Counted from the first letter of the stretch, positions 11,264-64,000 are shown. The stretch: DNA of 64,000 bases from an uncultured Chryseobacterium sp. (GCA_966211705.1 CBIHOC010000028.1:13767-77766), one strand, 5' to 3'. Numbers and translations are program-made. Notes: generated by a model not told the origin, from the letters alone.

Positions 11264-11317
11264 CTTCACTTACCCCTTACCCCGGAATAAATTCCGGGGT
11301 AAGGAACTTCTCGTTAA

Positions 11318-11404
11318 GCCCAGGTGGCGAAATTGGTAAACGTTGCGGTCTCAGAAGCCGTTGTCTTAATCGACTTGAGAGTTCGAGTCTCTCCCTGGGC
11401 ACCA
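11318..11404 (+). tRNA. tRNA-Leu (anticodon CAG), long variable arm, CCA encoded
   Basis: Acceptor stem GCCCAGG/CCTGGGC, anticodon stem GCGGT/GCCGT, loop CTCAGAA, T-arm AGTTCGAGTCT, 3' ACCA. Confidence 0.85.
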
Positions 11405-12073: not shown

Positions 12074-12106
12074 GAGGCTGTCCCGCAATTGAGACAGCCT
12101 ATTTTC
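12074..12106. terminator. bidirectional hairpin terminator between smpB and the SBBP gene
   Basis: AGGCTGTCCCGCAATTGAGACAGCCT followed by ATTTTCC. Confidence 0.55.
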
Positions 12107-12120
12107 CATTTTAGCTGATT

Positions 12121-20620: not shown

Positions 20621-21386
20621 TTATCTACCGCTTTCCAGGATTAATTTAATAACCCGGACATCCTCTTCGGTTTCGATCCTTGCGAAATAAAATCCGGGCG
20701 TCATTCCGGTCATATCTATGCTGATCCCCCCGGGAATCTGTTCCAGGTGAACAGGTTGAACTTCTTCACCGGTTACAGTAAAAATGGACGTTCGCAGAAC
20801 AGGCTGAGGAACAAGTAGTGTAACCGTTGAACTGAAAGGGTTAGGAAAAACCGCCAACCATAACGACCGAATTATCCGGTTGGGAATACGCCAGCGCCGC
20901 GCCGCCTTCTACCCCGGTTGCTGATGAGCCCATTCCTTTTGCCCAAAGGCTCAAGCCTGTCGAATCAAATTTTGCAAGAAAAATATCGCTTCCGCCTGCA
21001 GAAGTAAGTGTATCGTTCCCAAAAACGATCGTATTATCGAAGTAGCCACACATATACAGATTGCCAGATAAGTCACATACCAGGCTTTCTGCAAAATCGT
21101 TCCCGGTACCACCCAGACGTTTTGCCCACGCAAACTGCCCGTTTGACCGGTATTTAACGATAAAAATATCCCCTCCCCCGAATGTCGTATAGGTTTGACT
21201 GGCGATCGTGATGTTGGTACTGAGCGTATAAGAAACAGTATAAACGTTTCCGAAGGCATCGCTTGTTAAGGCATTCGCGAAATCGGAGCTGCTTCCACCA
21301 TAAGTACGTCCCCACTGGATGCTTTGCGCAGGTAAAACAAGCATATCCAGTAGTACCAGCAAAAGAAGCGTAACTGACCGTTTCAT
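20621..21386 (-). pseudogene. SBBP-repeat T9SS cargo gene split by a frameshift (181-aa repeat body plus 78-aa CTD in another frame)
   Basis: 20841..21386 encodes signal peptide plus SBBP repeats (GGSSSDFANALTSDAFGNVYTVS, GGTGNDFAESLVCDLSGNLYMCG). 20621..20857 encodes a T9SS CTD (VFPNPFSS...MTPGFYFARIETEE...IKLI). The CTD frame has a stop 18 codons upstream. The junction lies at an A5 run (20846-20850). Confidence 0.5.
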
Positions 21387-27087: not shown

Positions 27088-27495
27088 ATAAAGTGCAGAC
27101 CTGTAAGCCGGGTTCTGTGTCCGCGGAAGAACGAATCCTCCACGGCTTCCGTCATTTCTCTGGGATCCCGCTCGCGCGAAGACCTCAAGCAACCTACCCG
27201 TCACGATAATCCCGGTTTCCCGGAAAAGGCAGCGGGCAGCTGCACGATCGTGACCTATTTGGTTTTTCAACACCCGGGGTTTACCCCAGCGACTGTCGCC
27301 AGCCGCAGCGTGCGCTCTTACCGCACGTTTTCACCCTTACTGTCCCGCCGAAACGAGATTAGCGGTATAGTTCTCTGTGGCACTTTCCATAGTTTCACAT
27401 TCCTGTGAAACCTCTTCCCGTTAGGAAGCGAGCCGCCCTGTGTTGCCCGGACTTTCCTCTATACATTGCTGCACAGCGACGGAATAGTCTGCGGT
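27088..27495 (-). ncRNA. rnpB: RNase P RNA (bacterial type A)
   Basis: Minus strand contains GAGGAAAGTCCGGGCAACACAGGG (P4 5' strand region) and ACAGAACCCGGCTTACAGGTCTGCAC (P4 3' strand / P1 3' strand). 5' GCAGAC pairs with 3' GTCTGC (P1). A TATCTTTG -7 box sits on the minus strand at 27505-27498. Only short mutually overlapping ORFs occur here. Confidence 0.75.
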
Positions 27496-36848: not shown

Positions 36849-39800
36849 TCACTGAATCTTCTCACACTTCCTCCCCTCACCGACCAAAATCGACATGATC
36901 GCCGTCCGTATCCCCATCTTCGCCAGCTTGTTCACTTCCGCATCGGGATAAACGCGGTTCGACAAAAACACGTAAACGATTCCCGTCTCAGGGTCGGCCC
37001 ATGTTTGTGTGCCGGTGAAGCCCTGGTGGCCGAAGCTCGCGGGTGAGATGCTGTCGCAGGCCGGGTTGGGCTTGTCTTTGTTCGTCTCGGGCTTGTCGAA
37101 GCCGAGGCCGCGGCGGTTGCCGTTGTATTGTGCGCGGGTGAACTCGTTCACGGTTGCTTCTTTGAAGTAACGTTTGCCGCCGTACGTGCCGCCGTTGAGG
37201 AACAGCTGCATCATCACGGCCACGTCGTTCGCGTTGCTGAACACGCCGGCATGGCCGCCGATGCCGCCCATCAGCGCGGCGCCCTGGTCGTGCACATCGG
37301 CCTGCAGCTGGCGTTTGCGCCACACTTTATCGTTCTCCGTGGGTGCGCAGCGGGCGCTGGGGAAACGCAGGCGCGGCTGGTAGCCCATCGTGGGCAGACC
37401 GAGCGGTGCGTAGAAGGTGGTCATCGCGTGCGCGCTGAGCAGCGTGTCGGCGTCTTCCTCGATGATCTCCTTCAGGTAATAATAGCCGAGATCGCTGTAG
37501 AGGAACTTGTGCTCGCTGCTCACCGGGCTGTCGTTGATGCGCTTGTAGATGGTGTCGGTGTAGCCTTTGCGGACGAACATGCCGGGGGCGACGTACATCG
37601 GGAATGAATCGCTGAACGATTTCTGGAACATGCCTTTCTTCAGCGTGCCGTCTTTTTCCATCGTGCGCAGGTAGAACGGGATCCACGCCTGCAGCCCGGC
37701 CTGGTGCGCCAGCATTTCGCGGAGGATGATGCTGTCCTTGTTGGTTCCTTTCACCATCGGCAGGTACGTGCCGAGCCGCCCGTCCACGTTCAGCTTGTTC
37801 TCGTCCACCAGCTGCATCACGCACGGCACCGTGGCCACGATCTTCGTGATCGACGCGATGTCGTAGAGATCGAGGTTGCTGACGCGGCGCTTTTTTTCGT
37901 AGGTGAAATGACCGTACGATTTATTCAGGAACACTTTCCCGTCTTTCGCCGCAAACACCTGGCAGCCGGGATACGCATGTTCCTTAATTCCCTCCGCTAC
38001 GATGGAATCGATGCGCTCCAACGCTTCGCGGCTGAAACCGATCTCTTCGGGCATGGTGTATTTGAAACGCGTCGCGGGCGGCGTGGAAATGCCGCTTCCC
38101 GCCGGCCACATGTTCGTCGACACCGGCAAGCGCCCGGAAGCGCTCACGCCGCCGAACAAAACCTGCGCGGACAGATCTTCGCAATACTCCTCGCTCTGGT
38201 ACGAAAGCAGCACCGCGGAACAACGCTCGTGCCCGGGCAGCGCATTCAACGCGTACGGCGGACCGAACACGTCGAGCACCACTGTTTTCCCCGTAGCCAG
38301 CACAAGGTTCAGCAGTTCACGGTCGATATCTTCGAGCGCCGCATCTTTCACCGAACGCTGCGCCAGCTTGTGCATGCTGAGGATGATCACGTTGAAATCC
38401 TTCAATTTTTTCATCAGCGTGTCTTTCTCCGCCTGTTTCGCATCGCGCCTGATGCTGAACGGAGCCACGTTCGTGTAAACGCCGAGCCGGTCCTGGAAAA
38501 CCGTCGAGCCGCGCACGCCGATGGCCACGGAAGCGATCTTCAGCGTGTCGGGACGCATGAACGGGATGAGGGAATTGTCGTTCTTCAGCAGCGTTGCGGA
38601 ATGTTCGGCAATGTCGCGGCAGAGCAAATTCGCTTCCTGCGTGTTCAGGTCGCGGTAAAGATTTTTCACCTTTACCAGCTTCTGCTTGTCGAGGCCGCAC
38701 CATTTTTTCACCATCAATATTTTCCTGCACCGCGCGTCGATCTCTTCCTGCGTGATCTCGCCTTTCGCGATGGAGGCTTTGATCATTTGCACCGCTTTGG
38801 GAACGTTGCCGGAAAACAGCAGCATGTCGTTGCCCGCGAGCAGGGCTTTGACGTCCACTTCTCCCGGCGCGAAATAATTGCTAACGCCTTTCATGTTCAG
38901 CGCATCGGTGAAAATGAGGCCGCGGAACGAAAGTTTTTCCTTCAGCAATTCCGTCACGACGTTTTTTGAAAGCGTAGTCGGCGTATTCAAAGCTGTATCG
39001 TACGCGGGAATGTTGAGGTGCGCCACCATCATGCTCCCGAGACCGGCATCGATCATGCGTTTGAACGGGTACAGCTCCAGCGAATCGAGGCGCTCTTTCG
39101 TGTGGCTGATGACGGGCAATGTTTTGTGCGAATCGCTGTCGGTGTCGCCGTGGCCGGGAAAATGTTTCCCGCAGGCCAGCACGCCGCCATCCTGCAGGCC
39201 GTTCATGTATAGGATCGCCTTGTCGGCCACGCGGTATTTATCTTCCCCGAACGAGCGCGTGCCGATCACGGGATTTTTCGGGTTGTTGTTCACGTCGGCC
39301 ACCGGTGAAAAGCTCACATGCACGCCGAGGCGTTTGCATTCCCGCGCCATTTCTTTCCCCAGCTCGTAGATCAGCGAATCGTTCTGCATGGCGCCCATCG
39401 TCATCTGCATCGGGAATTCCGGCGTGCTGTCGAGGCGCATGGCCAGCCCCCACTCCGCGTCCATCGCGATGAGCAGCGGCACGGAAGAAAGTTTCTGGTA
39501 TTTGTTCGTGAGGTTCGCCTGCCGCACCGGCCCGCCCTGCATGAAAATGAGGCCGCCGACCTTGTTGTTGCGGATGAGGCTGGTGACTTCTTTAATATGC
39601 GCGGCGTCTTTGTTCGACCACGCCGCCGTCATGAACAGCTGGCCAATGCGTTCTTCCGGCGTCAATTTGCGCATGATGGAATCCACCCACGCGTCCGCTT
39701 CATGGGCAAAAAACGGCGGGGCCGAAAAGCGTTCGGGCAATTGCGCCGGCGCATCGGGTTCATAATAGCCTGTAGCCGCGGGACTTTGGAGCAGCACGGG

Positions 39801-39851
39801 CACGGGCAGCAACAGCAAAAAGCAAATAAGGGTCAGCGATAATTTTCTCAT
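36849..39851 (-). CDS. glycoside hydrolase family 3 (NagZ-like beta-N-acetylhexosaminidase) fused to a serine hydrolase/beta-lactamase-family domain
   Basis: N-terminal half has GH3 motifs (KHFPGHGDTDSDSH, FTDALNMKG). C-terminal half has a class C/DD-peptidase-like S-x-x-K (ASITK) plus YSD/GHQG motifs. About 1000 aa. Confidence 0.8.
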   Translation of the reverse strand: MRKLSLTLICFLLLLPVPVLLQSPAATGYYEPDAPAQLPERFSAPPFFAHEADAWVDSIMRKLTPEERIGQLFMTAAWSNKDAAHIKEVTSLIRNNKVGGLIFMQGGPVRQANLTNKYQKLSSVPLLIAMDAEWGLAMRLDSTPEFPMQMTMGAMQNDSLIYELGKEMARECKRLGVHVSFSPVADVNNNPKNPVIGTRSFGEDKYRVADKAILYMNGLQDGGVLACGKHFPGHGDTDSDSHKTLPVISHTKERLDSLELYPFKRMIDAGLGSMMVAHLNIPAYDTALNTPTTLSKNVVTELLKEKLSFRGLIFTDALNMKGVSNYFAPGEVDVKALLAGNDMLLFSGNVPKAVQMIKASIAKGEITQEEIDARCRKILMVKKWCGLDKQKLVKVKNLYRDLNTQEANLLCRDIAEHSATLLKNDNSLIPFMRPDTLKIASVAIGVRGSTVFQDRLGVYTNVAPFSIRRDAKQAEKDTLMKKLKDFNVIILSMHKLAQRSVKDAALEDIDRELLNLVLATGKTVVLDVFGPPYALNALPGHERCSAVLLSYQSEEYCEDLSAQVLFGGVSASGRLPVSTNMWPAGSGISTPPATRFKYTMPEEIGFSREALERIDSIVAEGIKEHAYPGCQVFAAKDGKVFLNKSYGHFTYEKKRRVSNLDLYDIASITKIVATVPCVMQLVDENKLNVDGRLGTYLPMVKGTNKDSIILREMLAHQAGLQAWIPFYLRTMEKDGTLKKGMFQKSFSDSFPMYVAPGMFVRKGYTDTIYKRINDSPVSSEHKFLYSDLGYYYLKEIIEEDADTLLSAHAMTTFYAPLGLPTMGYQPRLRFPSARCAPTENDKVWRKRQLQADVHDQGAALMGGIGGHAGVFSNANDVAVMMQLFLNGGTYGGKRYFKEATVNEFTRAQYNGNRRGLGFDKPETNKDKPNPACDSISPASFGHQGFTGTQTWADPETGIVYVFLSNRVYPDAEVNKLAKMGIRTAIMSILVGEGRKCEKIQ

Positions 39852-40020
39852 CTCGGGAGGGCTGGGAAGCGCTAAAACAAAGGATTTCAACGGAAATTTA
39901 AAAGTAAAACAAAGGATATGCCGCTTTCCCGTACAAGAAGCGACTTTTCAACAAATTAATTGTTGATGAAGCGGAGAATTAAGAATAGTTAACAGGTGTG
40001 GGGAAATTTTGAATAAGCGT

Positions 40021-47332: not shown

Positions 47333-48730
47333 ATGGCGCAGGTAGAACTGATCATGCCGAAAATGGGCGAAAGCGTCGCCGAAGCTACGATCATCAAATG
47401 GCTGAAGAACGAGGGCGACAAGATCGCGCTCGACGAGCCGGTGCTGGAGATCGCAACCGATAAGGTCGATTCCGAAATCCCTTCCCCGTTCGAAGGTGTT
47501 CTCACTAAAAAACTCTTCAACGAAGGCGACGTGGTGCAGGTCGGCAAAGCCGTCGCCCTCATTTCCACCGAAGCGGATGCCGCCACCTCTTCCGCCCCGC
47601 AAACTTCCGCGCCCGCTGCAGAAAAACAAAACGCCACTGCCGACGCATTCCCGACCGCGGTGAACAACCAGATCACAGACGCGGTTACCCAGGCGGTCAA
47701 CGAACAGGTCACGGACACGGTGAAGACCGGCGAATCCGGCCGCTTCTACAGCCCGCTCGTGCGCAACATCGCCAGGCAGGAAGGCATTTCCGTAGCCGAG
47801 CTCGAAACCATTCCCGGAACCGGCCAGCACGGACGCGTCACGAAAAACGACATTCTCAGTTACCTCCCGAATAAAGGAAAAGCCCAGCCACAGAAACAGG
47901 TGGCCCAGCCTTCTATCTCTTCCAACGGTAACGGATCGACCAGCACCACCACCGCGAAACCCGAAACTGCACAAACTTCCCAGCCCGTGCAGCACAAGGC
48001 CCCGGCCGTAACGATGATGAACGGCGACGAGATCATCGAGATGGACCGCATGCGCAAGCTCATCTCCGAGCACATGGTGATGAGCAAGCACACCGCCCCG
48101 CACGTCACGTCATTCGTGGAAGCCGACGTCACCAACCTCGTGCTCTGGCGCGAGAAAGTGAAAAAAGATTTCGAAAAACGCGAAAAAGAAAAGCTCACGT
48201 TCACGCCGCTCTTCATCGAAGCCGTGGTGAAAGCGATCAAGGATTTCCCGATGATCAACATCTCCGTCGACGGGCAGCGCATCATCGTGCGCAAGAACAT
48301 CAACATCGGCATGGCGGCGGCGCTTCCCAGCGGTAACCTCATCGTGCCCGTGATCAAGAACGCCGACCGCATGAACCTGTTCGGCCTGACCGCAGCGGTG
48401 AACGACCTTTCTTCCCGCGCCCGCGCCGGCAAGCTTACGCCCGACGACATTTCCGGCGGAACGTACACGCTTTCCAACGTCGGCACGTTCGGCAACGTGA
48501 TGGGAACGCCCATCATCAACCAGCCGCAGGTGGCCATCCTCGCCGTCGGCGCGATCCGCAAAAAACCCGCCGTCATCGAAACACCTTCCGGCGACACGAT
48601 CGGCATCCGTCACATGATGTTCCTCTCCCACTCCTACGACCACCGCGTGGTGGACGGCGCGCTGGGCGGGCAGTTTGTCCGGAGAGTTGCGGATTACCTG
48701 GAGCAGTGGGACCTGAACAGGGAGATTTAA
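47333..48730 (+). CDS. 2-oxoacid dehydrogenase E2 component (dihydrolipoyllysine-residue acyltransferase)
   Basis: Lipoyl domain (IATDKVDSEIPSP), E3-binding domain (RNIARQEGISVAEL...GTGQHGRVTKNDI), catalytic SHSYDHRVVDGALGG. Confidence 0.9.
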   Translation: MAQVELIMPKMGESVAEATIIKWLKNEGDKIALDEPVLEIATDKVDSEIPSPFEGVLTKKLFNEGDVVQVGKAVALISTEADAATSSAPQTSAPAAEKQNATADAFPTAVNNQITDAVTQAVNEQVTDTVKTGESGRFYSPLVRNIARQEGISVAELETIPGTGQHGRVTKNDILSYLPNKGKAQPQKQVAQPSISSNGNGSTSTTTAKPETAQTSQPVQHKAPAVTMMNGDEIIEMDRMRKLISEHMVMSKHTAPHVTSFVEADVTNLVLWREKVKKDFEKREKEKLTFTPLFIEAVVKAIKDFPMINISVDGQRIIVRKNINIGMAAALPSGNLIVPVIKNADRMNLFGLTAAVNDLSSRARAGKLTPDDISGGTYTLSNVGTFGNVMGTPIINQPQVAILAVGAIRKKPAVIETPSGDTIGIRHMMFLSHSYDHRVVDGALGGQFVRRVADYLEQWDLNREI

Positions 48731-48813: not shown

Positions 48814-49398
48814 ATGAAAAACTCTATTATCCTGGTTCTTGCACTACTGGTTTTTACGGCAATTGCAAACGGGCAATCACGGTGTATCGTCGTAAAATTT
48901 AATGGAGATACGCTCCGATGCGATAATGTTTCAGCAGGCGGAAAAACTATCGTTTGTAAAACCAAAGGCGCGGACAAAATCAAGCTCCAGGCGACAGAAG
49001 TAAAATATTATATGGAGCCTTTTCGCATGTATGAAACCTCTAACGGAGAAACGAAAAAACTGGACACGCTCCGCAAGAAGTTTGTGCCCGGAGATGGAAA
49101 AATTCATACAGTGCTCATGGAAAACGATTCGGTTTACCTTTCGGAAATTACAAAGACCATAGATGGCATGGAGTTCCAGGATTACTATATCCACCGTAAG
49201 CAGAATAACGGGGAAATCATGGAAATCAGGGAAGACAAAACAGCCATTAATGTGCTGGCGAAATACTTTGGCGGCTCTTGTCCTGAATTCGATAAAGCAA
49301 TTGCAGATGCACGGCCAAAATTCCAGAAGAAACTTTTCCCGATAGTCGAATGGAGAACCCTCATCTACATATATACAACTAAGTGCGGACGGGGCTAA
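48814..49398 (+). CDS. hypothetical secreted protein in an AT-rich island
   Basis: Signal peptide MKNSIILVLALLVFTAIANGQ. Local GC is far below the window average. Confidence 0.5.
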   Translation: MKNSIILVLALLVFTAIANGQSRCIVVKFNGDTLRCDNVSAGGKTIVCKTKGADKIKLQATEVKYYMEPFRMYETSNGETKKLDTLRKKFVPGDGKIHTVLMENDSVYLSEITKTIDGMEFQDYYIHRKQNNGEIMEIREDKTAINVLAKYFGGSCPEFDKAIADARPKFQKKLFPIVEWRTLIYIYTTKCGRG

Positions 49399-49548: not shown

Positions 49549-49556
49549 TATCTTTG
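49549..49556 (+). promoter_or_regulatory. -7 box TATCTTTG, 21 nt upstream of PorE-like paralog 1
   Basis: Matches TAnnTTTG. Supports the 49577 start. Confidence 0.4.
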
Positions 49557-49576
49557 ACAGCCTTTTAGCCGGACCC

Positions 49577-51619
49577 ATGAAAAAGACCTTCCTCGGCGCC
49601 GCCGCGCTCGTTTCCATCGTTATTTTCCTTCTTGCAGCCGGAATGCCCAAAGCTGCCCGCCAGAATATCGTCAAGGGCGATTCGTATTTTGTCGTCGAGC
49701 AATATGAAGAGGCGCTGAACTATTACAGCGAAGCATTCAAGCTCGATCCGGCCAATGCCAACCTTTCGTTCAAGATGGGCGTTTGCTGCCTCAACATTTC
49801 CCGTGAAAAAGCGAACGCGGAAAAGTACCTGTTCATCGCTGTTTCCAGTGTTTCCCTGAAATACCGCGAGACGAGCGTGAAAGAGCGCAAAGCTCCTCCG
49901 GTCGCCTATTTCTATTACGGGCAGGCGCTGCACTTCAATGCGAAGTTCGACGACGCGATCGCCGCCTTTGAAAGCTACAAAACGTATGTCGACCCGGCGG
50001 ATACGAAAACGATGAACGAGATCGCCCTGCGCATCACCTGGTGCAACAACGGGAAAACGCTCATGGCGAATCCCGTGAACATCAAAGTGGAAAACGTCGG
50101 GCAAGGCGTGAACACGGAATTCCCGGAATATTCCCCGGTGATCTCTGCCGACCAGCGCACGCTCATCTTCACCGCGCGCCGCGCCTCCACCACGGGCGGC
50201 CAGAAAGATGCGCGCGACGGGATGTATTTCGAAGACCTTTACATCAGCACGCGCGACGACGCCGGCAACTGGTCGGCCGCCATGCCGATGGGCAACAACA
50301 TCAACACCCCCGGCCACGAGGCCACGATCGGCATCAGCGCCGACGGGCAGCAACTCCTCATTTATAAGGACGACGCCGGCGACGGCAACGTGTACATCAG
50401 CCAGCTCATGGGCGCCAACTGGATGATGCCGCAGAAGCTCACGGAAAACGTCAACAGCAAAGCCTGGGAACCCAGCGCCTGCATCACGCCCGACGGGAAC
50501 ACGCTTTATTTCACGAGCAACGTTGCCGGCGGTTTCGGCGGACGCGACATCTACAAATCGGTGCGCCTGCCCAACGGGGAATGGTCGAAACCGACTAACC
50601 TCGGCCCGAAGATCAATTCCGCCTACGATGAAGACGCGCCGGCCATTCTCGCCGACGGGCAGACGCTTTATTTCGCCTCCAACGGCACGAAGTCGATGGG
50701 CGGGTTCGATATTCTCTTCACGACATTTTCTCCCGACAGCGGCTGGAGCGAGCCGGCAAACGTTGGCTACCCGGTGAATTCCACGGACGACGACGTGTTC
50801 TTCGCGCCCACGCCGGACAACACGCACGCGTATTTTTCTTCCGCCAACAACCCGGGCGGTTACGGCGAAAAGGATATTTATTTCCTCACCTTCCCGGAAA
50901 AAGAAGAAACGCGCCTCACCGTCCTCGAAGGCTCCATCACCAGCATCTACGGCGGCATCCCCGAAAATACGGTCATCACGGTGACGGACGTGGAAACGGG
51001 CGATATCATGGGCATGTACGTGCCGAACAGCGCGACGGGCCGTTACGTCATCATCCTTCCCCCGGGCCGCAACTACAGCATCAGCTACGAAGCCACCGAT
51101 TACCTCTACCAGTCCGACAACATCAACATTGCCGATACGATGGCGTACCAGGTGATCGAACGTCCCGTAGAGCTCGAGCCGCTCAAAGTGGGACAAAAGA
51201 TCGTCGTGCGGAACATCTTTTTCGCTTCAGGAAAATCGCAGCTTGCACCCGAATCCAAAATGGAGCTCGACAAGCTGGTGGACCTGATGACGAAATTCCC
51301 GAAGCTTATTCTTGAAATTTCCGGCCACACCGACGCCGCCGGCTCCGATGAGCTCAACCAGCGCCTTTCCGAGCAGCGCGCCCAGTCTGTCGCCGATTAC
51401 CTCATCGCGCACGGCATCGACAAAAGCCGCCTGCGCACCGTCGGCTACGGGGAATCCAAACCGATCGCCGTCAATTACAACAAGGACGGCTCGCCCAACC
51501 GCAACGGCATGGCGATGAACCGGCGCTTCGAATTCACCGTGCTGAGCGTGGACGGCGTGCTGAAAGACGTGGTGGAGCCGATCAACGTGCCGGAAAACCT
51601 GAAGAATAAAGGGAAATAG
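49577..51619 (+). CDS. PorE-like protein: TPR + PD40/TolB beta-propeller + CarboxypepD_reg + OmpA_C (paralog 1)
   Basis: MKKTFLGAAALV signal. TPR-like YYSEAFKLDPANANLSFKMGVCCL. PD40 blades SPDGNTLYFTSNVAGGFGGRDIYKS / LYFASNGTKSMGGFDILF. CRD RLTVLEGSIT...VTDVETG. OmpA_C NIFFASGKSQL...ISGHTDAAGSDELNQRLSEQRAQSV...NRRFEFTV. Confidence 0.7.
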   Translation: MKKTFLGAAALVSIVIFLLAAGMPKAARQNIVKGDSYFVVEQYEEALNYYSEAFKLDPANANLSFKMGVCCLNISREKANAEKYLFIAVSSVSLKYRETSVKERKAPPVAYFYYGQALHFNAKFDDAIAAFESYKTYVDPADTKTMNEIALRITWCNNGKTLMANPVNIKVENVGQGVNTEFPEYSPVISADQRTLIFTARRASTTGGQKDARDGMYFEDLYISTRDDAGNWSAAMPMGNNINTPGHEATIGISADGQQLLIYKDDAGDGNVYISQLMGANWMMPQKLTENVNSKAWEPSACITPDGNTLYFTSNVAGGFGGRDIYKSVRLPNGEWSKPTNLGPKINSAYDEDAPAILADGQTLYFASNGTKSMGGFDILFTTFSPDSGWSEPANVGYPVNSTDDDVFFAPTPDNTHAYFSSANNPGGYGEKDIYFLTFPEKEETRLTVLEGSITSIYGGIPENTVITVTDVETGDIMGMYVPNSATGRYVIILPPGRNYSISYEATDYLYQSDNINIADTMAYQVIERPVELEPLKVGQKIVVRNIFFASGKSQLAPESKMELDKLVDLMTKFPKLILEISGHTDAAGSDELNQRLSEQRAQSVADYLIAHGIDKSRLRTVGYGESKPIAVNYNKDGSPNRNGMAMNRRFEFTVLSVDGVLKDVVEPINVPENLKNKGK

Positions 51620-51713
51620 GCTTCGATACGGTCGGCAGACTGAGACGCGCCCTCCTTGTTATCAACTTGACATTCAGGTAAATCCTTCGTATTTTTAAAG
51701 TTCATATTCCCTC

Positions 51714-53897
51714 ATGATGAACTTTCTCCGGATTCTTCTCGCCGGTTGCCTGTTGCTCGCAGCGCTGCCGGCCGAGGCTAAAAAAGCTCTCGACGAGCGC
51801 AAGATGGCGCGTAAAGCGGAAACGCATTTCCAGTTTTCGGAATATGACGAAGCGCTGCCGATGTTCCTCAAGTTGCTGGAAAAGAACCCGGACAATGCGA
51901 GGTATTGCTTTTACACGGGCATCTGCTATTACTACTCCTCCACCGCCCGCCCGCTTGCCGTGCCCTATTTCGAACGCGCGCTGCGCCTGCCGGGGATCGA
52001 TAAAACGGCCGACCTGTATCTCCACGCGGGCCTCGCCTATTTATCCGTCAACCGCTTCGGCGACGCGAGCACATGCTTCCATTTGTTCCGCCAGAAAGCC
52101 GACGCAGCTTACGATCCCACCGTCGCCGACCGCCTCATTAAATATTGCGAAAACGGCCTGAAGTTCTGGGCGAAACCGGCCCGCGCGCGCATCCGCAACC
52201 TCGGAAAGAACGTGAACTCGAAATATCCCGATTACGCGCCGGTGTTCACCAAAGACGAAAGCCAGCTGCTGTTCACTTCGAAACGCCCGGGCACGACCGG
52301 CGGCCGAAGGGATGAGAACGGCTATTTCTACGAAGACATTTACCTCTCGAGAAATCTCGCCAGCCGCAAATGGGGCGAATCGGGGCGTTACGACACATCG
52401 TACAAAGCCCCGAAATTCGGGCCGTTCCGCTTTTTCTTCGCGCGCGCCGAAAATGTTTCGGAGATCAACACCAACGACCACGACGGATCCATCGCCATGT
52501 CGCCGGAAGGGGAAAACCTGTTCATCTACCGCTACGGCGACATCTGGAAAGCGGCGTGGGGCGGGTCGCGCTGGGAAAAACCGGAAAAGCTGCACCAGGA
52601 AGTGGACGCGCGTTCGAGCGTCGAGCCCAGCCTTTGTTTTTCGCCCGACGGCAATACGCTTTATTTTGTGAGCGACCGGAAAGGCGGCATGGGCGGGAAA
52701 GACATCTGGATGTGCCGGAAAAATGGGAATTCGTGGAGCCTTCCGGAAAATCTCGGGCCGAAGATCAACACCGCGCAGAATGAAGATGCGCCCAATCTTA
52801 CGAAAGACGGTAACACGCTTTATTTTTCCTCCGAAGGCCACAACAGCATGGGCGGCTTCGACGTGTTCCGCTCGGATATGGCCGCCGACGGTTCCTGGGA
52901 TGCGCCTGAAAATCTCGGGGCGCCGATCAATAACGGCGGTGACGATATTTTTTACACGCCCGGGCAGGACGGGAACTTCGCGTATTACGCCACGCTCAAC
53001 CGCTACGATGAAGGCGATCTCGATCTGTATTCGGTGATGTATTATCCCGAAGTGAAACCCATGGCAAAGCTGCGGCTGGCGAAAGACGAGCTTCCCGCAG
53101 GCGCAAGCGTACAGCTCGTGGTCGACAACGGCAATGGCCCGAAAACGTACGACGTTGCTGCCGGCGACAGCGTGATGTATGAATTCACGCCCGGCGGAAC
53201 AGCCATGATCACGGTGAAAGCCGACGGTTATCGCCCATTCGCCGACACGATCGTGCTCAGCGGGACCGAATACGAATATGCCCTGCAGGAAATTTCCGTG
53301 GGCACGAAAGACGACGATCGCCTTGCGCTGCAGCTCAGCAGCTATTTCTTCGACATCGATTACGCCGTAGATGCCGACACGCTGCTCGACCAGCTGGCCG
53401 ACCGGAAGCAGGCCCGCACGCTTTTCCTCGGCGGCCTCACCGACATGCGTTCCGTGTACACCGCGTACAGCACGCAGGCCGACCGCGTCACGCTCGTCAG
53501 CGCCGGCAGCACGATCGACCCGCTGGCCGCAACTGCACTGGCTTCGGGCGGATCATGGCTCACGCTGGACAATGGGCAGGTGCTGTTCGACGTCAACGAA
53601 GCGTTCGTGCGCAACGACATGAAAGCCCAGCTCGACCGGATGGCAAACATGTTGAAAAAAGATCCTTCGGCCACGCTGCGCATCACCGGCCACGCCGACA
53701 GCCAGGGCGGCGACGACTACAACCTGAAGCTTTCGAAGCGCAGGGCGACCGCGGTGAGAAATTATTTCATCATCAGCGGCATTTCCCCCTCGCGCCTTGT
53801 CGTGCAGGGCGAAGGCGAAAATGTTCCCGTGGCGCCGAACGACAACCCGCAGGGCCGCAGCATGAACCGCCGTGTCGAGATCCAGCTCGTGCGCTGA
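51714..53897 (+). CDS. PorE-like protein: TPR + PD40 + CRD + OmpA_C (paralog 2)
   Basis: LLAGC lipobox-like signal. SPDGNTLYFVSDRKGGMGGKDIWM, LYFSSEGHNSMGGFDVF. OmpA_C ITGHADSQGGDDYNLKLSKRRATAV...NRRVEIQLV. Confidence 0.7.
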   Translation: MMNFLRILLAGCLLLAALPAEAKKALDERKMARKAETHFQFSEYDEALPMFLKLLEKNPDNARYCFYTGICYYYSSTARPLAVPYFERALRLPGIDKTADLYLHAGLAYLSVNRFGDASTCFHLFRQKADAAYDPTVADRLIKYCENGLKFWAKPARARIRNLGKNVNSKYPDYAPVFTKDESQLLFTSKRPGTTGGRRDENGYFYEDIYLSRNLASRKWGESGRYDTSYKAPKFGPFRFFFARAENVSEINTNDHDGSIAMSPEGENLFIYRYGDIWKAAWGGSRWEKPEKLHQEVDARSSVEPSLCFSPDGNTLYFVSDRKGGMGGKDIWMCRKNGNSWSLPENLGPKINTAQNEDAPNLTKDGNTLYFSSEGHNSMGGFDVFRSDMAADGSWDAPENLGAPINNGGDDIFYTPGQDGNFAYYATLNRYDEGDLDLYSVMYYPEVKPMAKLRLAKDELPAGASVQLVVDNGNGPKTYDVAAGDSVMYEFTPGGTAMITVKADGYRPFADTIVLSGTEYEYALQEISVGTKDDDRLALQLSSYFFDIDYAVDADTLLDQLADRKQARTLFLGGLTDMRSVYTAYSTQADRVTLVSAGSTIDPLAATALASGGSWLTLDNGQVLFDVNEAFVRNDMKAQLDRMANMLKKDPSATLRITGHADSQGGDDYNLKLSKRRATAVRNYFIISGISPSRLVVQGEGENVPVAPNDNPQGRSMNRRVEIQLVR

Positions 53898-53946
53898 ACA
53901 TGCTCTATATCAGCCGCATTTTTCGACAAATATCCGGATAAAGGAT

Positions 53947-53954
53947 TATTTTTG
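53947..53954 (+). promoter_or_regulatory. -7 box TATTTTTG upstream of paralog 3
   Basis: Matches TAnnTTTG, 36 nt before the ATG. Confidence 0.4.
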
Positions 53955-53989
53955 CGGAAATGCACCCCGCGATTTAAAGTAAACTGTTT

Positions 53990-56083
53990 ATGATTTTGAA
54001 GCGCATTGTATTGTTGCTCCTCGTCGTGTTTTCGGGAGCGATCCTGAGGGGGCAGACGCCTATTCCCGGCAATTACAGGGACAATTTCCTTGAAGGCAAC
54101 CGCCTCATCGAGGAGAAGAACTGGCCGATGGCGCTGCTTTATTTCCAGGAAGCCTACAAGGTGGATTCCACGAACGCCAACATCAACTACAAGATGGGCC
54201 TTTGCTACCTGAATTCCGCCTCGGAAAAAGACAAAGCCCTGCCGTTCCTCCGCATTGCCGCCCGCGACGTAGCACGCAATTACGACCCGTACGAGCCGAA
54301 AGTGAAAAAGGCACCCGAGAATACGTTCTACTATCTCGCACAGGCGTACCATTACAATTACAAGTTCGATTCGGCCATCAGCTATTTCGACTCGTACAAA
54401 GCCATCCTCGGCAACCGCGATCCCGCCACCACCAAAGACATCAACACGCGCATCAACTGGTCGATGAACGCACAGGAATTCATGCGCTCTCCCCTGCCCG
54501 TGACGATCGCCAACATGGGCGACAGCATCAACGGCAGCCTGCCCGACTACGGCCCCGTGATCTCGATCGATGAGAACACGATCATCTTCACTTCCCGCCG
54601 TTTCGGGGAAAGAGCCATCGACGGACAGTTTTACGAAGACATCCTCATTTCGGAAAAGAAAGCCGACGGAACGTGGACCACGGCGCGTCCCATCAGTCCA
54701 TACATCAACACCGTGACGAACGAGGCGACGATCTCCCTTTCCGCCGACGGGCAGAAGCTTTTCCTTTACCGCGATGACGGGGGCGGGGACATTTATTCCA
54801 GCACGAACATGAACGGCGAATGGATGGCGCCGGTGCCGCTCGGCGGCGAGATCAACACCAAATACTGGGAAACGCACGCCTGTCTTTCGGCCGACGGAAA
54901 TACGCTTTATTTCGTGAGCGATCGCCCGGGCGGGTTCGGCGGGCGCGACATCTACCGCTGCGTGCTGCTGCCCAACGGGAAATGGTCGAAAGCCCTCAAC
55001 CTCGGACCTGCGGTGAATACGGCGGAGGACGAGGACGCCCCGTTCATTCACCCCGACCAGCAAACGCTTTTCTTCTCCTCCAAAGGACACAAGTCCATGG
55101 GCGGCTTCGACATTTTCTTCACGTCGAAAAATGAAGAAGGCATGTGGGCCGCCCCGGTGAATATCGGCTACCCGATCAACACGCCGGACGACGACATTTT
55201 TTACATGACTTCGCCGGACGGTAAGCGCGCTTATTTTTCTTCCGTGCGTGAAGGCGGTTACGGTGAAAAGGACATTTACATGGCCACGCTGGAAAAGGCG
55301 GTGGACGTGAGCCTCACGCTGCTCAAGGGCCGCATCTACAACGCCGACGGCAGCCCGCTCACGCAGAAGATCGACATTATCGTGACGAACAGCCTTTCGG
55401 GCGAGCTGAACGGGAACTACAAGCCGAACAAGAACGGCAACTTCACGATCATCCTCAACCCGGGCAACACGTACCAGATCTCCTACCTCGTCGACGATAA
55501 AGAATTCTCCAACGAGATCATCGACATTCCCGCCGGTTCCGGCTTCGACGTGATCGAACGCGCGATCGACCTGCGCGACCTTGTGCTCGGAAAGCTCCCG
55601 ACGACGTTCCCGAAAGACACGAACCTGGTGCGCGTCAACCCGCTTCCCGGGGATTCCGTGAAGCCCGGACAGCGCCCGAAGAACTGGAAAGCAGAGCTGA
55701 CGGAAACGCACAACCTGAATTTCTCGATGTTCTTCAAATACAACATTTCGAGCATCGACCCGAACGATCCCGATTTCAAAACGTTCATCGACAGCTGCGT
55801 GGCGCACATCAATAAGTTCGGCGAGATCAATTTCCGGATTACCGCCGCCGCTTCGCAGGTTCCGACAAAGAAATTCAAGGACAACAAAGAGCTTGCCCGC
55901 GACCGTGCAGACAAAGCCCAGGCCGTGGTCGACAAAGCGCTGAAAGCGAAAGGCGTCGACATGTCGAAGGTGCACTGGGTGAAAGTCAACGCATACGTGC
56001 TTGGCCCCCAGTACAAGTCCGACTTCGAGAAACGGAAAGCGACGTACGAGAAATACCAGTACGTAAAGATCCGGGGATACTAA
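53990..56083 (+). CDS. PorE-like protein: TPR + PD40 + CRD with a divergent non-canonical C-terminal domain (paralog 3)
   Basis: YFQEAYKVDSTNANINYKMGLCYLN. SADGNTLYFVSDRPGGFGGRDIYR, LFFSSKGHKSMGGFDIFF. C-terminus lacks the OmpA_C signature. Confidence 0.65.
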   Translation: MILKRIVLLLLVVFSGAILRGQTPIPGNYRDNFLEGNRLIEEKNWPMALLYFQEAYKVDSTNANINYKMGLCYLNSASEKDKALPFLRIAARDVARNYDPYEPKVKKAPENTFYYLAQAYHYNYKFDSAISYFDSYKAILGNRDPATTKDINTRINWSMNAQEFMRSPLPVTIANMGDSINGSLPDYGPVISIDENTIIFTSRRFGERAIDGQFYEDILISEKKADGTWTTARPISPYINTVTNEATISLSADGQKLFLYRDDGGGDIYSSTNMNGEWMAPVPLGGEINTKYWETHACLSADGNTLYFVSDRPGGFGGRDIYRCVLLPNGKWSKALNLGPAVNTAEDEDAPFIHPDQQTLFFSSKGHKSMGGFDIFFTSKNEEGMWAAPVNIGYPINTPDDDIFYMTSPDGKRAYFSSVREGGYGEKDIYMATLEKAVDVSLTLLKGRIYNADGSPLTQKIDIIVTNSLSGELNGNYKPNKNGNFTIILNPGNTYQISYLVDDKEFSNEIIDIPAGSGFDVIERAIDLRDLVLGKLPTTFPKDTNLVRVNPLPGDSVKPGQRPKNWKAELTETHNLNFSMFFKYNISSIDPNDPDFKTFIDSCVAHINKFGEINFRITAAASQVPTKKFKDNKELARDRADKAQAVVDKALKAKGVDMSKVHWVKVNAYVLGPQYKSDFEKRKATYEKYQYVKIRGY

Positions 56084-56281
56084 ACCGTAAACATCAAAAG
56101 AGGCGTCGTAAAAGGCGCCTTTTTTTATTCCCTGTCCCATGTCTTTTACCGGCAACAGCAGGTATCAACCGATACCTTTCACCAGACTGGTAAAAAAGCG
56201 GGTATTTTGCTATTTTTGAAGAGAATAACCTCCTTTGGAGCAGTTATTGTTTGACCTAACCCAACCATCGAGAATCCTTAC

Positions 56282-57853
56282 GTGAAAACGGTGAAGTTGC
56301 TTTGTGTAGTGCTGATGCTGGGGATCGTATGCCAGCTGCATGCGCAAGCCGCGCGGCCTTCCGGCACGCCCGACCCTGAACTTGCCGCCGAGCATTACAA
56401 GCACGGGAACTTCGTGATGGCGCGGCCCATCTATGTCGCCCTCGTTAAAAAAGAACCTTCCAATTACGAATACAATTTCCGCGCAGGCATGTGTTACCTG
56501 GAAACGAACGGGCACAAAACGGAAGCGGTAAACTATTTCGAAGCCTGCACGAAAAACCCCAAAGCGGAAAAAGAGGCATGGCTGTACCTCGGCCAGGCGT
56601 ATCACCATGCATTGCGTTTAGACGACGCGATCAAGGCTTATGAAACATATAAGACAAAAGCCGGGAAAGACGGAATTGCGGAAGCGGATTATCTTATCCA
56701 GCAATGTAAAAACGCGAAGATCCTGGTCAAGAACCCGCTCGATGTTTCGTTCGTCAATATCGGCAAGGAGATCAATTCCGAATTTCCCGATTATTACCCG
56801 TTCGTGACTTCCGACGAGTCGATGATGATCTTCACCACCCGCCGGAAAGGCAACGTGGGCGCGACTTCCGTGGAGATGGACGGTTATTATCCTTCGGATG
56901 TTTATTTCGCAAAATCCGTCAACGGCGTTTTCCAGAAAAGCAAAGGAGCAGGCCCGTCGATCAACGGAAATTATGACGAGCAGTGCACCGGGCTTTCGGC
57001 CGACGGAAAATGGATGACGGTTTACGTGGACAACATCACCACAGCGGGCGACATTTACCAGTCGGCATACAAAACCTCTTTTGCGAGAATGCAAAAGATC
57101 GAAGAGCCGGTCAATGACGGTTTCGAGACGGCAGCGGCATTTTCTCCCGACGGCAACGCGGTTTTTTTCTCGAGCAAGCGCGACGGCGGACAGGGCGGAA
57201 CCGACATCTACATGTGCCGCAGGCTCCCGCCCATCAAAGACGGAAAAACATGGGGACTTCCCATCAACATCACGGTGATCAACACGCCGCTCAACGAAGA
57301 TTTCCCGTTCATGTCGCCCGACGGGGAAACGTTGTACTTCGCATCGCAGGGACACAACAGCATGGGCGGCTACGATCTTTTCGTCACCGTGTTCGACGAG
57401 GAAACAAATACATGGTCAACGCCCCGCAACGTCGGCTATCCCGTCAATTCCCCCTCCGACGACCTCACGATCTGCTTCACCGAGAACAACCGCGTGGCGT
57501 ACGTTTCCAGCGACCGTGAAGGCGGCATGGGCGACCTCGACATCTGGCGCGTGGTGTTCAACGAAGTGCAGGCCTCTTCCTTCACCGTGCTCACCGGCAA
57601 CATCATCACCGCCGACTCCACGATGAACAAAGCCGAGCTCACGATCATGGTCACCAACGTATCAACGAACGAAGATTACGGGAGCTACCGCCCCAACCCG
57701 ACGACCGGCAAATACGTGATGGCTTTGCCTCCCGGCAAATACATCATGTCGCTCGACGCGCCCGGCCACAAGCCTTACCTGGAAACGGTCATCATCTTCG
57801 ACATCGGCCCGCAGGGAGCGATGAGCAAGGACATCATGCTGGTGAAGCAGTGA
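56282..57853 (+). CDS. PorE-like protein, short: TPR + PD40 + CRD, no OmpA_C (paralog 4)
   Basis: GTG start (in-frame stop at 56252-56254). YNFRAGMCYLE. SPDGNAVFFSSKRDGGQGGTDIYM, LYFASQGHNSMGGYDLFV. CRD VLTGNIITAD...MVTNVSTNE. -7 box TATTTTTG at 56211. Confidence 0.6.
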   Translation: MKTVKLLCVVLMLGIVCQLHAQAARPSGTPDPELAAEHYKHGNFVMARPIYVALVKKEPSNYEYNFRAGMCYLETNGHKTEAVNYFEACTKNPKAEKEAWLYLGQAYHHALRLDDAIKAYETYKTKAGKDGIAEADYLIQQCKNAKILVKNPLDVSFVNIGKEINSEFPDYYPFVTSDESMMIFTTRRKGNVGATSVEMDGYYPSDVYFAKSVNGVFQKSKGAGPSINGNYDEQCTGLSADGKWMTVYVDNITTAGDIYQSAYKTSFARMQKIEEPVNDGFETAAAFSPDGNAVFFSSKRDGGQGGTDIYMCRRLPPIKDGKTWGLPINITVINTPLNEDFPFMSPDGETLYFASQGHNSMGGYDLFVTVFDEETNTWSTPRNVGYPVNSPSDDLTICFTENNRVAYVSSDREGGMGDLDIWRVVFNEVQASSFTVLTGNIITADSTMNKAELTIMVTNVSTNEDYGSYRPNPTTGKYVMALPPGKYIMSLDAPGHKPYLETVIIFDIGPQGAMSKDIMLVKQ

Positions 57854-62503: not shown

Positions 62504-62525
62504 TTTCGCGGTAAAGCAGTAGAAT
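62490..62525. terminator. bidirectional hairpin CTGCTTTACCGCG-loop-CGCGGTAAAGCAG
   Basis: Perfect 13-bp stem overlapping both convergent stop codons. Confidence 0.6.
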
Positions 62526-64000
62526 TACTGGCCTTTTACGACTTTACGCGTAAACGTTCCGTCTTCGCTCCTCACCTGTAAGATGTAAACGCCTGTCGCC
62601 ACTGCGCCGAGCTCGGTGAGCGTGTAGTGGTTCTCCGAATTTCCCACCGCAAAAAGCTGCTGGTCGACGAGCTTCCTTCCGCGTGAATCGTACAGCGTGA
62701 TCTGCAGCTCCTGGTCGACGGTCGAATAGAAAGAGAAATAGAGCTCGTTGCCGAACGGCACGGGGGAAATGCTGTACAGCGCATCGGCTGTTGCCGGCAT
62801 TGTTCCGCCGAGCGTGAGGTTTGCGGCGCAGAAATCGGGAATGCCGTAACCCATGAGCGAATCCGGGTTCGAAGCCTGGCTGGCGCTTTGCTCCACGGCC
62901 TGCAGCAGCTGCATGTTGGTGAACGAGGGCTGCGCCTGGATCAGGCAAGCCACCAGCCCGCAAAGCACCGGCGAAGCGAAAGAAGTCCCGTTGCCGGTCT
63001 GGATGCCCATGTTGAACGGATCGCAGACCACCGTGGAAGCGCCCTGCGCGGCGACATTCGGTTTCACGTCGCCGTCGGATGCGGGACCGCGTGAGCTGAA
63101 GCCGGCGAGCACGCCGGCAGGATCAACGGCTGCAATCGCCAGCGCGCTGTCGGCGTCGGCAGGGGCGCCAATGTAGAACCAGGGACTTTGCCCGGAATTT
63201 CCCGCGCTTACGATGACGGCAATTCCTTTGCGCGCCGCAAGGTTGGCGGCCCTGGAGCACGGCGTGGTGTACCCGTTCATGTCGGCATACGTATGGTTCT
63301 GCGCGGGGTCGTCGAATGTCGTGTAGCCGAGCGAGGAGTTGATCGCGTCCGCTCCTGCGCTGTCGGCGAATTCGGCGGCGGAGGCCCAGTAATATTCTTC
63401 CACGAGATATTCCGTGGCCGCTTCTTCGCTGCGGAGGAGCCAGTAGCTCGCATCCGGCGCAGTTCCCACGAGCTGGCCGGGAAGATTTCCGCCCATGCAG
63501 GAAAGCACCATCGTGCCGTGCGTGTTGTCTTCATAAACGGAAGAATCGCCTGCGACGAAATCCCAGGTGCCGAGGATGCGGTTGTTCATGAACAAACTGT
63601 CGAAGCAGGGAAGCGAATCGGCATTGTAAAAGCCGGCATCGATCACCGCGATGTGAACGCCTTCGCCGGTGAATCCCGCATTGTGCAGGCAAACGCCGCC
63701 GAGCATGTCGACCTGGTTGAACGAGGCGCCGTAATTGAGCGTGGAAGAGATCACATTGCCGGAACGGATGCGCGCCTGGCGGACCGGCCCGAAGGTTTCT
63801 GCGTCGAACTTGTTGTCGCTTTCACCAGCGGTCCGCAGTCCCACTCCAGAATAACCGGCCACATACGGCAACGCCGCGATGAGGTTCAGCGCGTTCGTAT
63901 CGGTGGTGAAGATCACGACGCCGTTCAGCCATTTCGATGTTGCGTGAACGGTCACCCCGGTTGCCGCAACACCCGCCACATACGCCGGCGTCACCGGCAG
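62525..64000 (-). CDS. S8 family serine peptidase (subtilase) with T9SS C-terminal sorting domain; 5' end beyond window
   Basis: HIAVIDAGF (Asp), HGTMVLSCMGG (His), GTSFASPVLCGLVA (Ser). CTD ...ISPVPFGNELYFSF...YILQVRSEDG. Frame stays open past 64000, so the listed M at 63994 is a GTG. Confidence 0.8.
   Translation of the reverse strand: MPVTPAYVAGVAATGVTVHATSKWLNGVVIFTTDTNALNLIAALPYVAGYSGVGLRTAGESDNKFDAETFGPVRQARIRSGNVISSTLNYGASFNQVDMLGGVCLHNAGFTGEGVHIAVIDAGFYNADSLPCFDSLFMNNRILGTWDFVAGDSSVYEDNTHGTMVLSCMGGNLPGQLVGTAPDASYWLLRSEEAATEYLVEEYYWASAAEFADSAGADAINSSLGYTTFDDPAQNHTYADMNGYTTPCSRAANLAARKGIAVIVSAGNSGQSPWFYIGAPADADSALAIAAVDPAGVLAGFSSRGPASDGDVKPNVAAQGASTVVCDPFNMGIQTGNGTSFASPVLCGLVACLIQAQPSFTNMQLLQAVEQSASQASNPDSLMGYGIPDFCAANLTLGGTMPATADALYSISPVPFGNELYFSFYSTVDQELQITLYDSRGRKLVDQQLFAVGNSENHYTLTELGAVATGVYILQVRSEDGTFTRKVVKGQ

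Follow-up and report, generated by a model that had tools for sequence, protein, structure and literature searches.

Four consecutive genes on the + strand, P1 (49577..51619), P2 (51714..53897), P3 (53990..56083) and P4 (56282..57853), fill positions 49577-57853 of the 64-kb window, the whole stretch of DNA analysed, and all four ORFs lie where the sequence-only reading had placed its tandem same-strand paralogs. Their products share 29-39% pairwise identity (BLASTP, E 1e-66 to 1e-152), making them paralogs far beyond chance, and a tblastn search of the 64-kb window found no family member beyond these four. Counted from an ATG start at 49577, P1 has 680 aa; there is also a longer ORF starting at 49529, and the 49577 start is adopted because orthologues are 680-682 aa long and a TAnnTTTG box lies at 49549. 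P2, P3 and P4 encode 727, 697 and 523 aa. Recent gene conversion among the four genes was considered and rejected, the DNA repeats being just 60-75% identical and no longer than 300 nt.

Each protein begins with what reads as a type I signal peptide (cleavage judged by eye), followed by a TPR region and a propeller. A Pfam HMM search, which had been proposed as a check, matched TPR and PD40 in all four proteins and OmpA (PF00691) in P1 and P2 only, at 84.1 and 77.5 bits against a gathering score of 27.2, in agreement with the canonical OmpA_C domains claimed for these two; P3 and P4 had no PF00691 match at E<=0.1. At the same E<=0.1 limit, CarboxypepD_reg matched none of the four window copies. 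The CRD claimed for all four therefore lacks direct Pfam support here and holds indirectly, because 16 of 27 P1 orthologues match CarboxypepD_reg (best E 2e-9) and residues 443-512 form a beta-sandwich in the AF2 model of P3.

P1 has the plain layout of signal peptide, TPR (TPR_2, 30 bits), PD40 propeller (78 bits), CRD and canonical OmpA_C (aa 548-638, nt 51218-51490), and its orthologues hold the first array position in 8 other genomes; Asp586, Asn594 and Arg601 are kept in 26-27 of 27 orthologues. In P2 the PD40 propeller (68 bits) carries an insert, and a CRD-like region and an unassigned insert of about 100 aa precede the OmpA_C domain (aa 624-719, nt 53583-53870), which has a GHAD...NRR motif. 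P1 Asp586/Asn594 and the equivalent P2 pair have the +8 spacing of Asp576 and Asn584 in PorE, both essential residues of its OmpA_C domain (PMC12773672). P2 is the fastest-evolving member, with 65% identity to the related locus L003 against about 75% for the other three and a dN/dS of 0.10 in comparison with locus L092, and it is the gene missing from three-gene arrays.

In P3, a TPR region (29-166), a propeller (171-434), the CRD beta-sandwich (443-512) and a disordered linker (536-568) lead to a variant OmpA_C-like domain (aa 571-696, nt 55700-56077). The divergent C-terminal domain claimed for this protein is real: modelled on its own for fold comparison, it gave a confident predicted structure with the beta-alpha-beta-alpha-beta arrangement of the OmpA_C fold. 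A Foldseek search of the PDB with the whole P3 model returned generic beta-propellers only. Compared with the OmpA_C/MotB/Pal domains of PF00691, it has SxVPT in place of GHTD and YxKYQYVK in place of NRR.E, and it lies under Pfam detection. Over 36 homologues 14 residues are invariant; SxVPT, an N and an R do not vary, and Ser622 stands where PorE has its Asp. The variant domain is common to about 409 representatives at 50% clustering, and SxVPT itself is present in 63/64 single-copy genes and in 139/147 representatives of the P3-type domain family. Purifying selection is strong, with a dN/dS of 0.046 for the whole gene and 0.030 for the C-terminal domain. Since the pocket Asp has become an invariant Ser, the wall ligand of P3 is probably a different or a modified one. 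Fusions of P3-type domains to DUF1573 and a multihaem cytochrome also occur; several “stand-alone” matches of about 170 aa, which come from contigs 0.6-1.7 kb long, could be fragments.

P4 consists of signal peptide, TPR (TPR_16, 42 bits), PD40 propeller (84 bits) and CRD and then stops, without a wall-binding domain: it aligns with P1 residues 1-506, and Pfam finds no OmpA in it. The absence of an anchor had been read correctly, and it is shared by the P4 orthologues, which are 513-549 aa long, also stop after the CRD, hold the last array position in 7 other genomes and form one clade with bootstrap 100 in a neighbor-joining (NJ) tree.

Each gene had been credited with its own TAnnTTTG box, and an exact box does precede three of the four, all on the + strand: TATCTTTG at 49549..49556, of the Bacteroidota -7 type and 21 nt 5' of the P1 ATG; TATTTTTG at 53947..53954, 5' of P3 within a conserved spacer; and TATTTTTG again at 56211..56218, 5' of P4 within a conserved segment of about 75 nt. 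Upstream of P2 there is no exact box; the region offers just TATTTTTA and, in the P1-P2 spacer at 51667..51695 (+ strand), a sigma-70-like TTGACA-17-TATTTT sequence, a consensus match and nothing further. TAnnTTTG is not enriched in the whole window (21 observed, 20.6 expected), and the weight of the boxes comes solely from their position and their conservation in L092: the P2-P3 spacer is about 95% identical to that of L092, against a synonymous divergence of about 0.55-0.6 in the flanking genes, and the segment 5' of P4 is near-identical there, the remainder of the P3-P4 spacer being unalignable. Directly 3' of the P3 stop lies a terminator-like hairpin followed by a T-run (56096..56126, + strand), read by eye and missed by a consensus terminator scan because its loop exceeds 8 nt; at the same site L092 has a different, stronger hairpin (GGCGTC-AATTAC-GACGCC and a T-run).

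The best full-length curated matches of P1-P4 in NCBIfam are to T9SS_PorE (NF052230; 307, 232, 190 and 163 bits, cutoff 600) and CHU_0125_OmpA (NF053607; 313, 227, 196 and 184 bits, cutoff 620). Neither cutoff is reached, and by model score the four proteins are equally distant from PorE and CHU_0125. The PorE model gives 186-308 bits to orthologues, to single-copy relatives and to a fifth paralog; as this fifth paralog, in locus L090, likewise attains only 326 and 308 bits on the curated models, under both cutoffs, the shortfall may mean no more than that the models were trained narrowly, and it is a weak negative for function. The PorE order of TPR, propeller, CRD and OmpA_C is found in P1 and P2, at fold level only in P3, and not in P4, which is without the last domain; the CHU_0125 order of TPR, PD40 and OmpA_C is found in P1 and P2, partly in P3, and not in P4.

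One possibility, which we regard as credible but unlikely, is that these are general outer-membrane integrity proteins, that is, fused TolB-like/Pal-like tethers resembling CHU_0125, with no specific secretion link. CHU_0125 itself combines TPR, PD40 and OmpA_C and affects outer-membrane integrity (PMC5891637), its model is the top NCBIfam match for P1, P3 and P4, and the locus, conserved across the order, sits amid housekeeping genes. However, the scores fall short of the CHU_0125 cutoff twofold, the TolB scores (TIGR02800) are negligible at 19.4 bits for P3 and 23.4 for P4 against a cutoff of 343, with generic PD40 repeats alone in common, and the retention of a variant-pocket and an anchorless member would be left unexplained.

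It is doubtful, too, that they are true T9SS components, diversified PorE equivalents, each of which would give wall attachment to a different PorP/SprF-like shuttle with its type B cargo, or to the PorK/N ring. An analogous proposal exists for five PorE-homologue operons of F. johnsoniae, the T9SS_PorE model matches nearly the whole of P1, which has the PorE layout of domains, P1 and P2 keep the Asp and Asn that are essential in PorE (PMC12773672), and the genome does carry type A T9SS cargo: all three CTD proteins reported earlier, at 12121-15069, 20621-20857 and 62525-64000, were confirmed by TIGR04183 (32-47 bits, cutoff 23). Against this, the scores reach half the curated cutoff at best and are no different from those obtained with the CHU_0125 model, a non-T9SS family, and the Asp required for PorE function is Ser622 in P3, while P4 lacks the whole domain. 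PorE is an outer-membrane lipoprotein with a type II signal peptide and lipobox Cys (PMC5053529); by pattern test, a lipobox is absent in 62/63 family members (26/27 P1-family, 36/36 P3-family). Among the Pfam-annotated genes of 8 loci, some window neighbours having no Pfam match, no PorP_SprF family member or type B CTD protein occurs in the 10 kb around the array, unlike the F. johnsoniae operons (PMC12618676, PMC9143113), although absent T9SS neighbours are weak evidence because P. gingivalis porE is itself in an operon with the housekeeping genes queD/queE (PMC5053529). What stands of the original identification with PorE is thus the architecture, the OmpA_C residues of P1 and P2 and the presence of T9SS cargo; the scores do not bear it out, nor do the missing lipoprotein signal and porP-like neighbour. 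On sequence grounds, P1-P4 are best called PorE relatives, without being demonstrable PorE orthologues.

Copy number in relatives, another suggested comparison, is four, three or a single P3-type gene at the same slot. The slot is marked by a 2-oxoacid dehydrogenase E2 gene (47333..48730, + strand), a syntenic anchor outside the system, with Biotin_lipoyl, E3_binding and 2-oxoacid_dh Pfam matches in orthologous loci; in 57 single-copy loci, as in the arrays, it is the gene directly upstream of the family member(s). The array is four genes long in four other genomes (four-gene arrays: L002-L006 and L008) and three genes long in four more (L010 and L089-L091), and in 66 other Flavobacteriales species one P3-type gene occupies the slot after the E2 gene. 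In the NJ tree each paralog type clusters as its own clade across genomes; given the weak support for the deep branching order, the case for P3 as the ancestral type comes mainly from synteny and the shared C-terminal domain. Values of dN/dS over the array comparisons are 0.03-0.10, indicating purifying selection.

The sequence-only reading had described an anchor progressively lost along the array, possibly leaving decoy variants. Both ideas are contradicted by these data: P3-type genes are widespread single-copy occupants of the slot and under purifying selection (domain dN/dS 0.03), and the order canonical, canonical, variant, none is fixed by position across diverged genomes, so the array represents stable differentiation rather than decay. 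A decay series, in which one working PorE-like gene is followed by copies losing their anchor (a degenerate P3 and a truncated P4, decoys or pseudogenes-to-be), would fit C-terminal modules that run canonical, canonical, Pfam-unrecognised and absent, but it is extremely improbable, being contradicted by the dN/dS values (lowest in the supposedly degenerate domain) and by conservation: the invariant residues and confident fold of P3, its lone conserved counterparts in other species, and the constant-length P4-type clade.

The reading we prefer, with a probability of roughly 60%, is that P1-P4 are a fixed set of PorE/CHU_0125-superfamily paralogs dividing an ancestral role, as periplasmic tethers with differing wall modules. 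It builds on observed genes, domains, folds, motifs, synteny and selection, and would add to them a localisation, partner binding, a change of ligand and a division of labour. Each product would be exported by its cleavable Sec signal peptide as a soluble periplasmic protein and not a lipoprotein; the TPR region and PD40 propeller would bind an outer-membrane partner, which may belong to the T9SS or be a protein of the envelope in general, and the C-terminal module would fix the complex to the wall. This tether model is drawn wholly by analogy with P. gingivalis PorE, in which the propeller binds PorP and the OmpA_C domain binds peptidoglycan (PMC9143113, PMC12773672, PMC7192894). P1 and P2 would bind peptidoglycan through the canonical pocket (Asp, Asn, Arg); P3, the orthologue of the lone gene filling the slot in other Flavobacteriales, would use an OmpA_C-fold pocket with Ser for Asp to hold another or modified wall ligand; P4 would be an unanchored scaffold version. 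P4 without an anchor and P3 with its changed pocket may, alternatively, tether nothing. Purifying selection keeps the set; at least P1, P3 and P4 have promoter-like boxes of their own, and the terminator-like hairpin ends P3.

A bolder and rather improbable extension is that the array forms a purpose-built heteromeric tether with three modes of wall attachment, namely a classical DAP-pocket OmpA_C in P1 and P2, an SxVPT pocket that takes a different ligand in P3, and the lack of any anchor in P4. The P3-type protein would then be an unrecognised core envelope component; its gene is present in single copy and at a fixed position across the Flavobacteriales, and the C-terminal domain falls in a branch of the OmpA_C superfamily that has no annotation and comprises about 400 clusters at 50% identity. 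The locus shows that a position-fixed, single-copy “hypothetical PD40 protein” of many Flavobacteriales carries at its end a cryptic domain of OmpA_C type whose pocket is changed, and which sequence annotation misses. The locus is also a natural comparison set, one scaffold whose wall module is classical, altered or absent, retained together across long evolutionary distances. PorE is the least understood link of the T9SS with the cell wall, and environmental Bacteroidota carry many PorE-like genes; the findings are leads for envelope biology and leave the present T9SS picture unchanged.

Among known systems, P. gingivalis PorE (PG1058/PGN_1296) differs from the array proteins, which have a cleavable signal peptide, no lipoprotein signal and no porP link, and which come as three or four tandem copies with differentiated C-termini, including the Ser-for-Asp change in P3 and, in P4, the loss of a domain that PorE cannot do without (PMC12773672). 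CHU_0125 of Cytophaga hutchinsonii has TPR, PD40 and OmpA_C in common with them and is the top curated match for P1, P3 and P4, the P1 match spanning positions 7-638 of 639 in the model; the array scores nevertheless stay at 184-313 bits, and CHU_0125 carries a lipoprotein annotation and was studied as a single gene (PMC5891637). The array resembles the PorE-like proteins of Flavobacterium johnsoniae (such as Fjoh_3950), thought to be static anchors of complexes to the wall (PMC12618676, PMC9143113), in that one Flavobacteriales genome holds multiple homologues; those are dispersed, and the operon of each also encodes a type B CTD substrate and an SprF/PorP-like shuttle, whereas here the copies adjoin each other, without such neighbours. 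PorE had been taken to be normally single-copy, which is wrong for species other than P. gingivalis: Heath et al. (2016) counted 2-13 homologues per species (PMC5053529), and F. johnsoniae and C. hutchinsonii are credited with “multiple” or “many” (PMC9127263, PMC11611037). The proviso attached to the PorE identification, that these might belong to a common family while a different PorE orthologue lies elsewhere in the genome, applies in its first half, the family being widespread. Because multi-copy PorE/CHU_0125 families are already known in environmental Bacteroidota, the locus is a modest variation on a known theme, and its sole fresh detail is the hidden, re-tooled wall-binding domain in P3.

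Four consecutive ORFs on the + strand, arranged head-to-tail, make up the array: P1 (49577-51619, 680 aa), P2 (51714-53897, 727 aa), P3 (53990-56083, 697 aa) and P4 (56282-57853, 523 aa). A P1 start at 49577, rather than at the upstream ATG at 49529, fits because its orthologues are 680-682 aa long and a TATCTTTG box lies at 49549. The four proteins match each other with BLASTP E-values of 1e-66 to 1e-152 at only 29-39% identity, and are clearly paralogs; a search of the whole 64,000-nt window found no further family members. At the DNA level, 60-75% identity is confined to short pieces of the propeller region, ruling out recent gene conversion; with the low protein identity, this makes the duplications old. 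Long antisense ORFs over P3 (797 aa, 53762-56155, -) and P1 (543 aa, 49565-51196, -) are by-products of GC-rich coding sequence; a naive longest-ORF choice prefers one of them to P3.

The shared architecture proposed by the sequence-only reading is borne out: each of the four proteins has Pfam matches to TPR and PD40 repeats, and the CarboxypepD_reg domain (CRD), below Pfam detection in the window copies, is matched in 16/27 P1 orthologues and represented in the AF2 model of P3 (pLDDT 82) by a beta-sandwich (residues 443-512) following TPR helices (29-166) and propeller (171-434). P1-P4 are four exported proteins on one TPR-propeller-CRD scaffold, conserved as a set, differing at the C-terminus: P1 and P2 have the classical peptidoglycan pocket, in P3 the pocket of an OmpA_C fold is remodelled, and P4 has no wall module. 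As that reading had also claimed, a Pfam match to canonical OmpA_C (PF00691) is limited to P1 (84 bits) and P2 (77.5 bits), where the domain's Asp, Asn (+8) and Arg are retained; in ungapped register against 6TOP, P1 Asp586/Asn594 map onto PorE Asp576/Asn584, which are essential in PorE (PMC12773672). Between its CRD and OmpA_C, P2 has about 100 aa (residues ~510-620, window 53240-53580) with no family match; this insert may be the remnant of a second OmpA_C copy, because the opening residues (YFFDIDYAVDADTLLDQL) are similar to that domain's first strand and helix.

The P3 C-terminus (residues 571-696, window 55700-56077, +), a cryptic OmpA_C-like domain, is a useful by-product of the array study. 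It had been called divergent; it does diverge from canonical OmpA_C, and fold model and profile alignment additionally place it within that fold. Residues 580-662 align in register with P1 OmpA_C (profile-profile E 1.2e-4), and the domain modelled by itself reaches pLDDT 88.9 and pTM 0.81. In place of canonical GHTD stands xSASQVPT, with Ser622 at the position expected for the peptidoglycan-binding Asp; S622, V624, P625, T626, N632 and R639 are invariant across 36 homologues. A phmmer search of 1.84 billion representatives found the variant in 409 proteins (229 at E<=1e-10), although some matches of ~170 aa may be fragments. S.[VI]P[TS] is present in 139 of 147 checked representatives and GH[TAS]D in none, and no Pfam or NCBIfam model is above threshold on the domain. 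The SxVPT variant is its own family, with 409 representatives at 50% clustering (including P0241-P0387). Most have a TPR-PD40-CRD body; in a few the domain is C-terminal to DUF1573 (P0248, P0260) or a multihaem cytochrome (P0245), and it also ends very long PD40 proteins (1832-1956 aa).

The array occupies a conserved slot. The same four genes occur in the same order in loci L003, L006 and L008 of other genomes (P1 orthologue identity 75%, 55% and 53%), and P1-P3-P4 arrays lacking P2 in four more (L010, L089, L090, L091); a 2-oxoacid dehydrogenase E2 gene (47333-48730, + in the window) precedes all of these, and an RNase T-like and an FAA-hydrolase gene follow most. Scanning one genome per species added 66 Flavobacteriales loci in which the family has a single member, with E2 directly upstream in 57 and the RNase T-like gene directly downstream in 46. 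Slot copy number is therefore 1, 3 or 4 by lineage. The single genes match P3 over its full length (37-42% identity), carry SxVPT in 63/64 cases and GH[TAS]D in 0/64, and cluster with P3 in an NJ tree of the 501 columns common to the paralogs; by position, P3 is thus the orthologue of this widespread single gene. The tree places the sequences of each paralog type from the different genomes in a clade of their own (bootstrap 79, 58, 71 and 100 for P1-P4), deeper branching order being beyond it.

The C-terminal module follows position (gene 2 canonical, gene 3 SxVPT, last gene none), also in L008. There, the second gene (12103-14400) has an N-terminal body nearer P3 (48%) than P2 (36%) yet a canonical OmpA_C, which suggests module exchange or independent duplication at position 2. 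L090 has a fifth, distant member (1-1980; 25-27% identity to P1-P4, canonical OmpA_C) 8 kb upstream of its array. A signal-peptide-bearing ORF of 194 aa (48814-49398, +), without Pfam or NCBIfam match, separates E2 from P1 here and in same-species contigs L001 and L002, and is missing there in L003, L006 and L008, where P1 directly follows E2.

Elsewhere in the window, all three proposed T9SS type A C-terminal domains (CTDs) are real (TIGR04183, 32-47 bits, cutoff 23). One, a 78-aa ORF (33 bits), shares 17 nt, in a different frame, with the end of an SBBP-repeat ORF of 181 aa; the region (20621-21386, -) looks like a single SBBP-CTD gene that a frameshift has split, as a pseudogene or through an assembly error. 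Also present are class A RNase P RNA (27088-27495, -; 241 bits), two tRNA-Leu genes (11183-11264 and 11318-11404, +; GAG and CAG anticodons), a 1013-aa fusion of a glycoside hydrolase family 3 protein with a beta-lactamase-fold domain (36849-39890, -) and a 745-aa protein of seven WG_beta_rep repeats (7114-9351, -).

On the model of PorE, P1-P4 would bind an outer-membrane partner through the N-terminal scaffold and fix it to the cell wall through the C-terminus, the paralogs perhaps splitting the work by partner, wall ligand, or anchored versus free state. We put the probability of such a periplasmic tether or scaffold at roughly 0.6, a figure within which the readings of its partner are nested. 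On curated full-length models, P1/P2/P3/P4 score 313/227/196/184 bits for CHU_0125_OmpA (cutoff 620) and 307/232/190/163 for T9SS_PorE (cutoff 600); orthologues, single-copy genes and the L090 fifth paralog (PorE 308, CHU_0125 326, below both cutoffs) span 186-326. P1-P4 are related at equal distance to the two families and belong to neither; since the cutoffs could just be too narrow, these misses weigh little against a shared function. A role in general envelope integrity, as for CHU_0125, is somewhat unlikely.

That the partner is the T9SS, as the proposed PorE identity would have it, is rather unlikely. Architecture, the P1/P2 Asp/Asn and the T9SS CTDs favor it; against it stand the missed cutoff and two differences: PorE is a lipoprotein (PMC5053529), whereas P1-P4 have type I signal peptides without a lipobox (by pattern), and PorE acts with PorP (PMC9143113), its F. 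johnsoniae homologues sharing operons with genes for SprF-like shuttles and type B substrates (PMC12618676), whereas none of the loci read has a SprF/PorP-like or type B substrate gene less than 10 kb from the array. P. gingivalis porE is co-transcribed with queD/queE (PMC5053529), so housekeeping surroundings are compatible with a T9SS role.

That the array consists of decaying or decoy copies progressively losing their anchor is very improbable, since in comparison with L092, a close relative whose P3 is 96% identical in amino acids, dN/dS is 0.046 for P3, 0.030 for its OmpA-like domain, 0.20 for its linker and 0.10 for the P2 C-terminal 621 aa (dS 0.54-0.78), the spacer between P2 and P3, which holds a TATTTTTG box, is ~95% conserved, a ~75-nt segment with the P4 TATTTTTG box is near-identical (the rest of the P3-P4 spacer being unalignable), a hairpin and T-run of differing sequence follow P3 in both genomes, and C-termini are fixed by position. 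Exact TAnnTTTG boxes, claimed for each gene, precede P1, P3 and P4, with none before P2.

The sequence-only reading holds as to what is there and in part as to what it means. PorE had been taken as normally single-copy, which holds for P. gingivalis only: Heath et al. (2016; PMC5053529) counted, across 174 Bacteroidetes species, 424 proteins whose domains are ordered as in PG1058, some species having 2 to 13, and reviews credit F. johnsoniae with "multiple" homologues and C. hutchinsonii with "many" (PMC9127263, PMC11611037). In the open-access literature searched, neither a tandem, position-fixed array nor the SxVPT domain is described; the array is a fixed tandem set inside a family already known as multi-copy.
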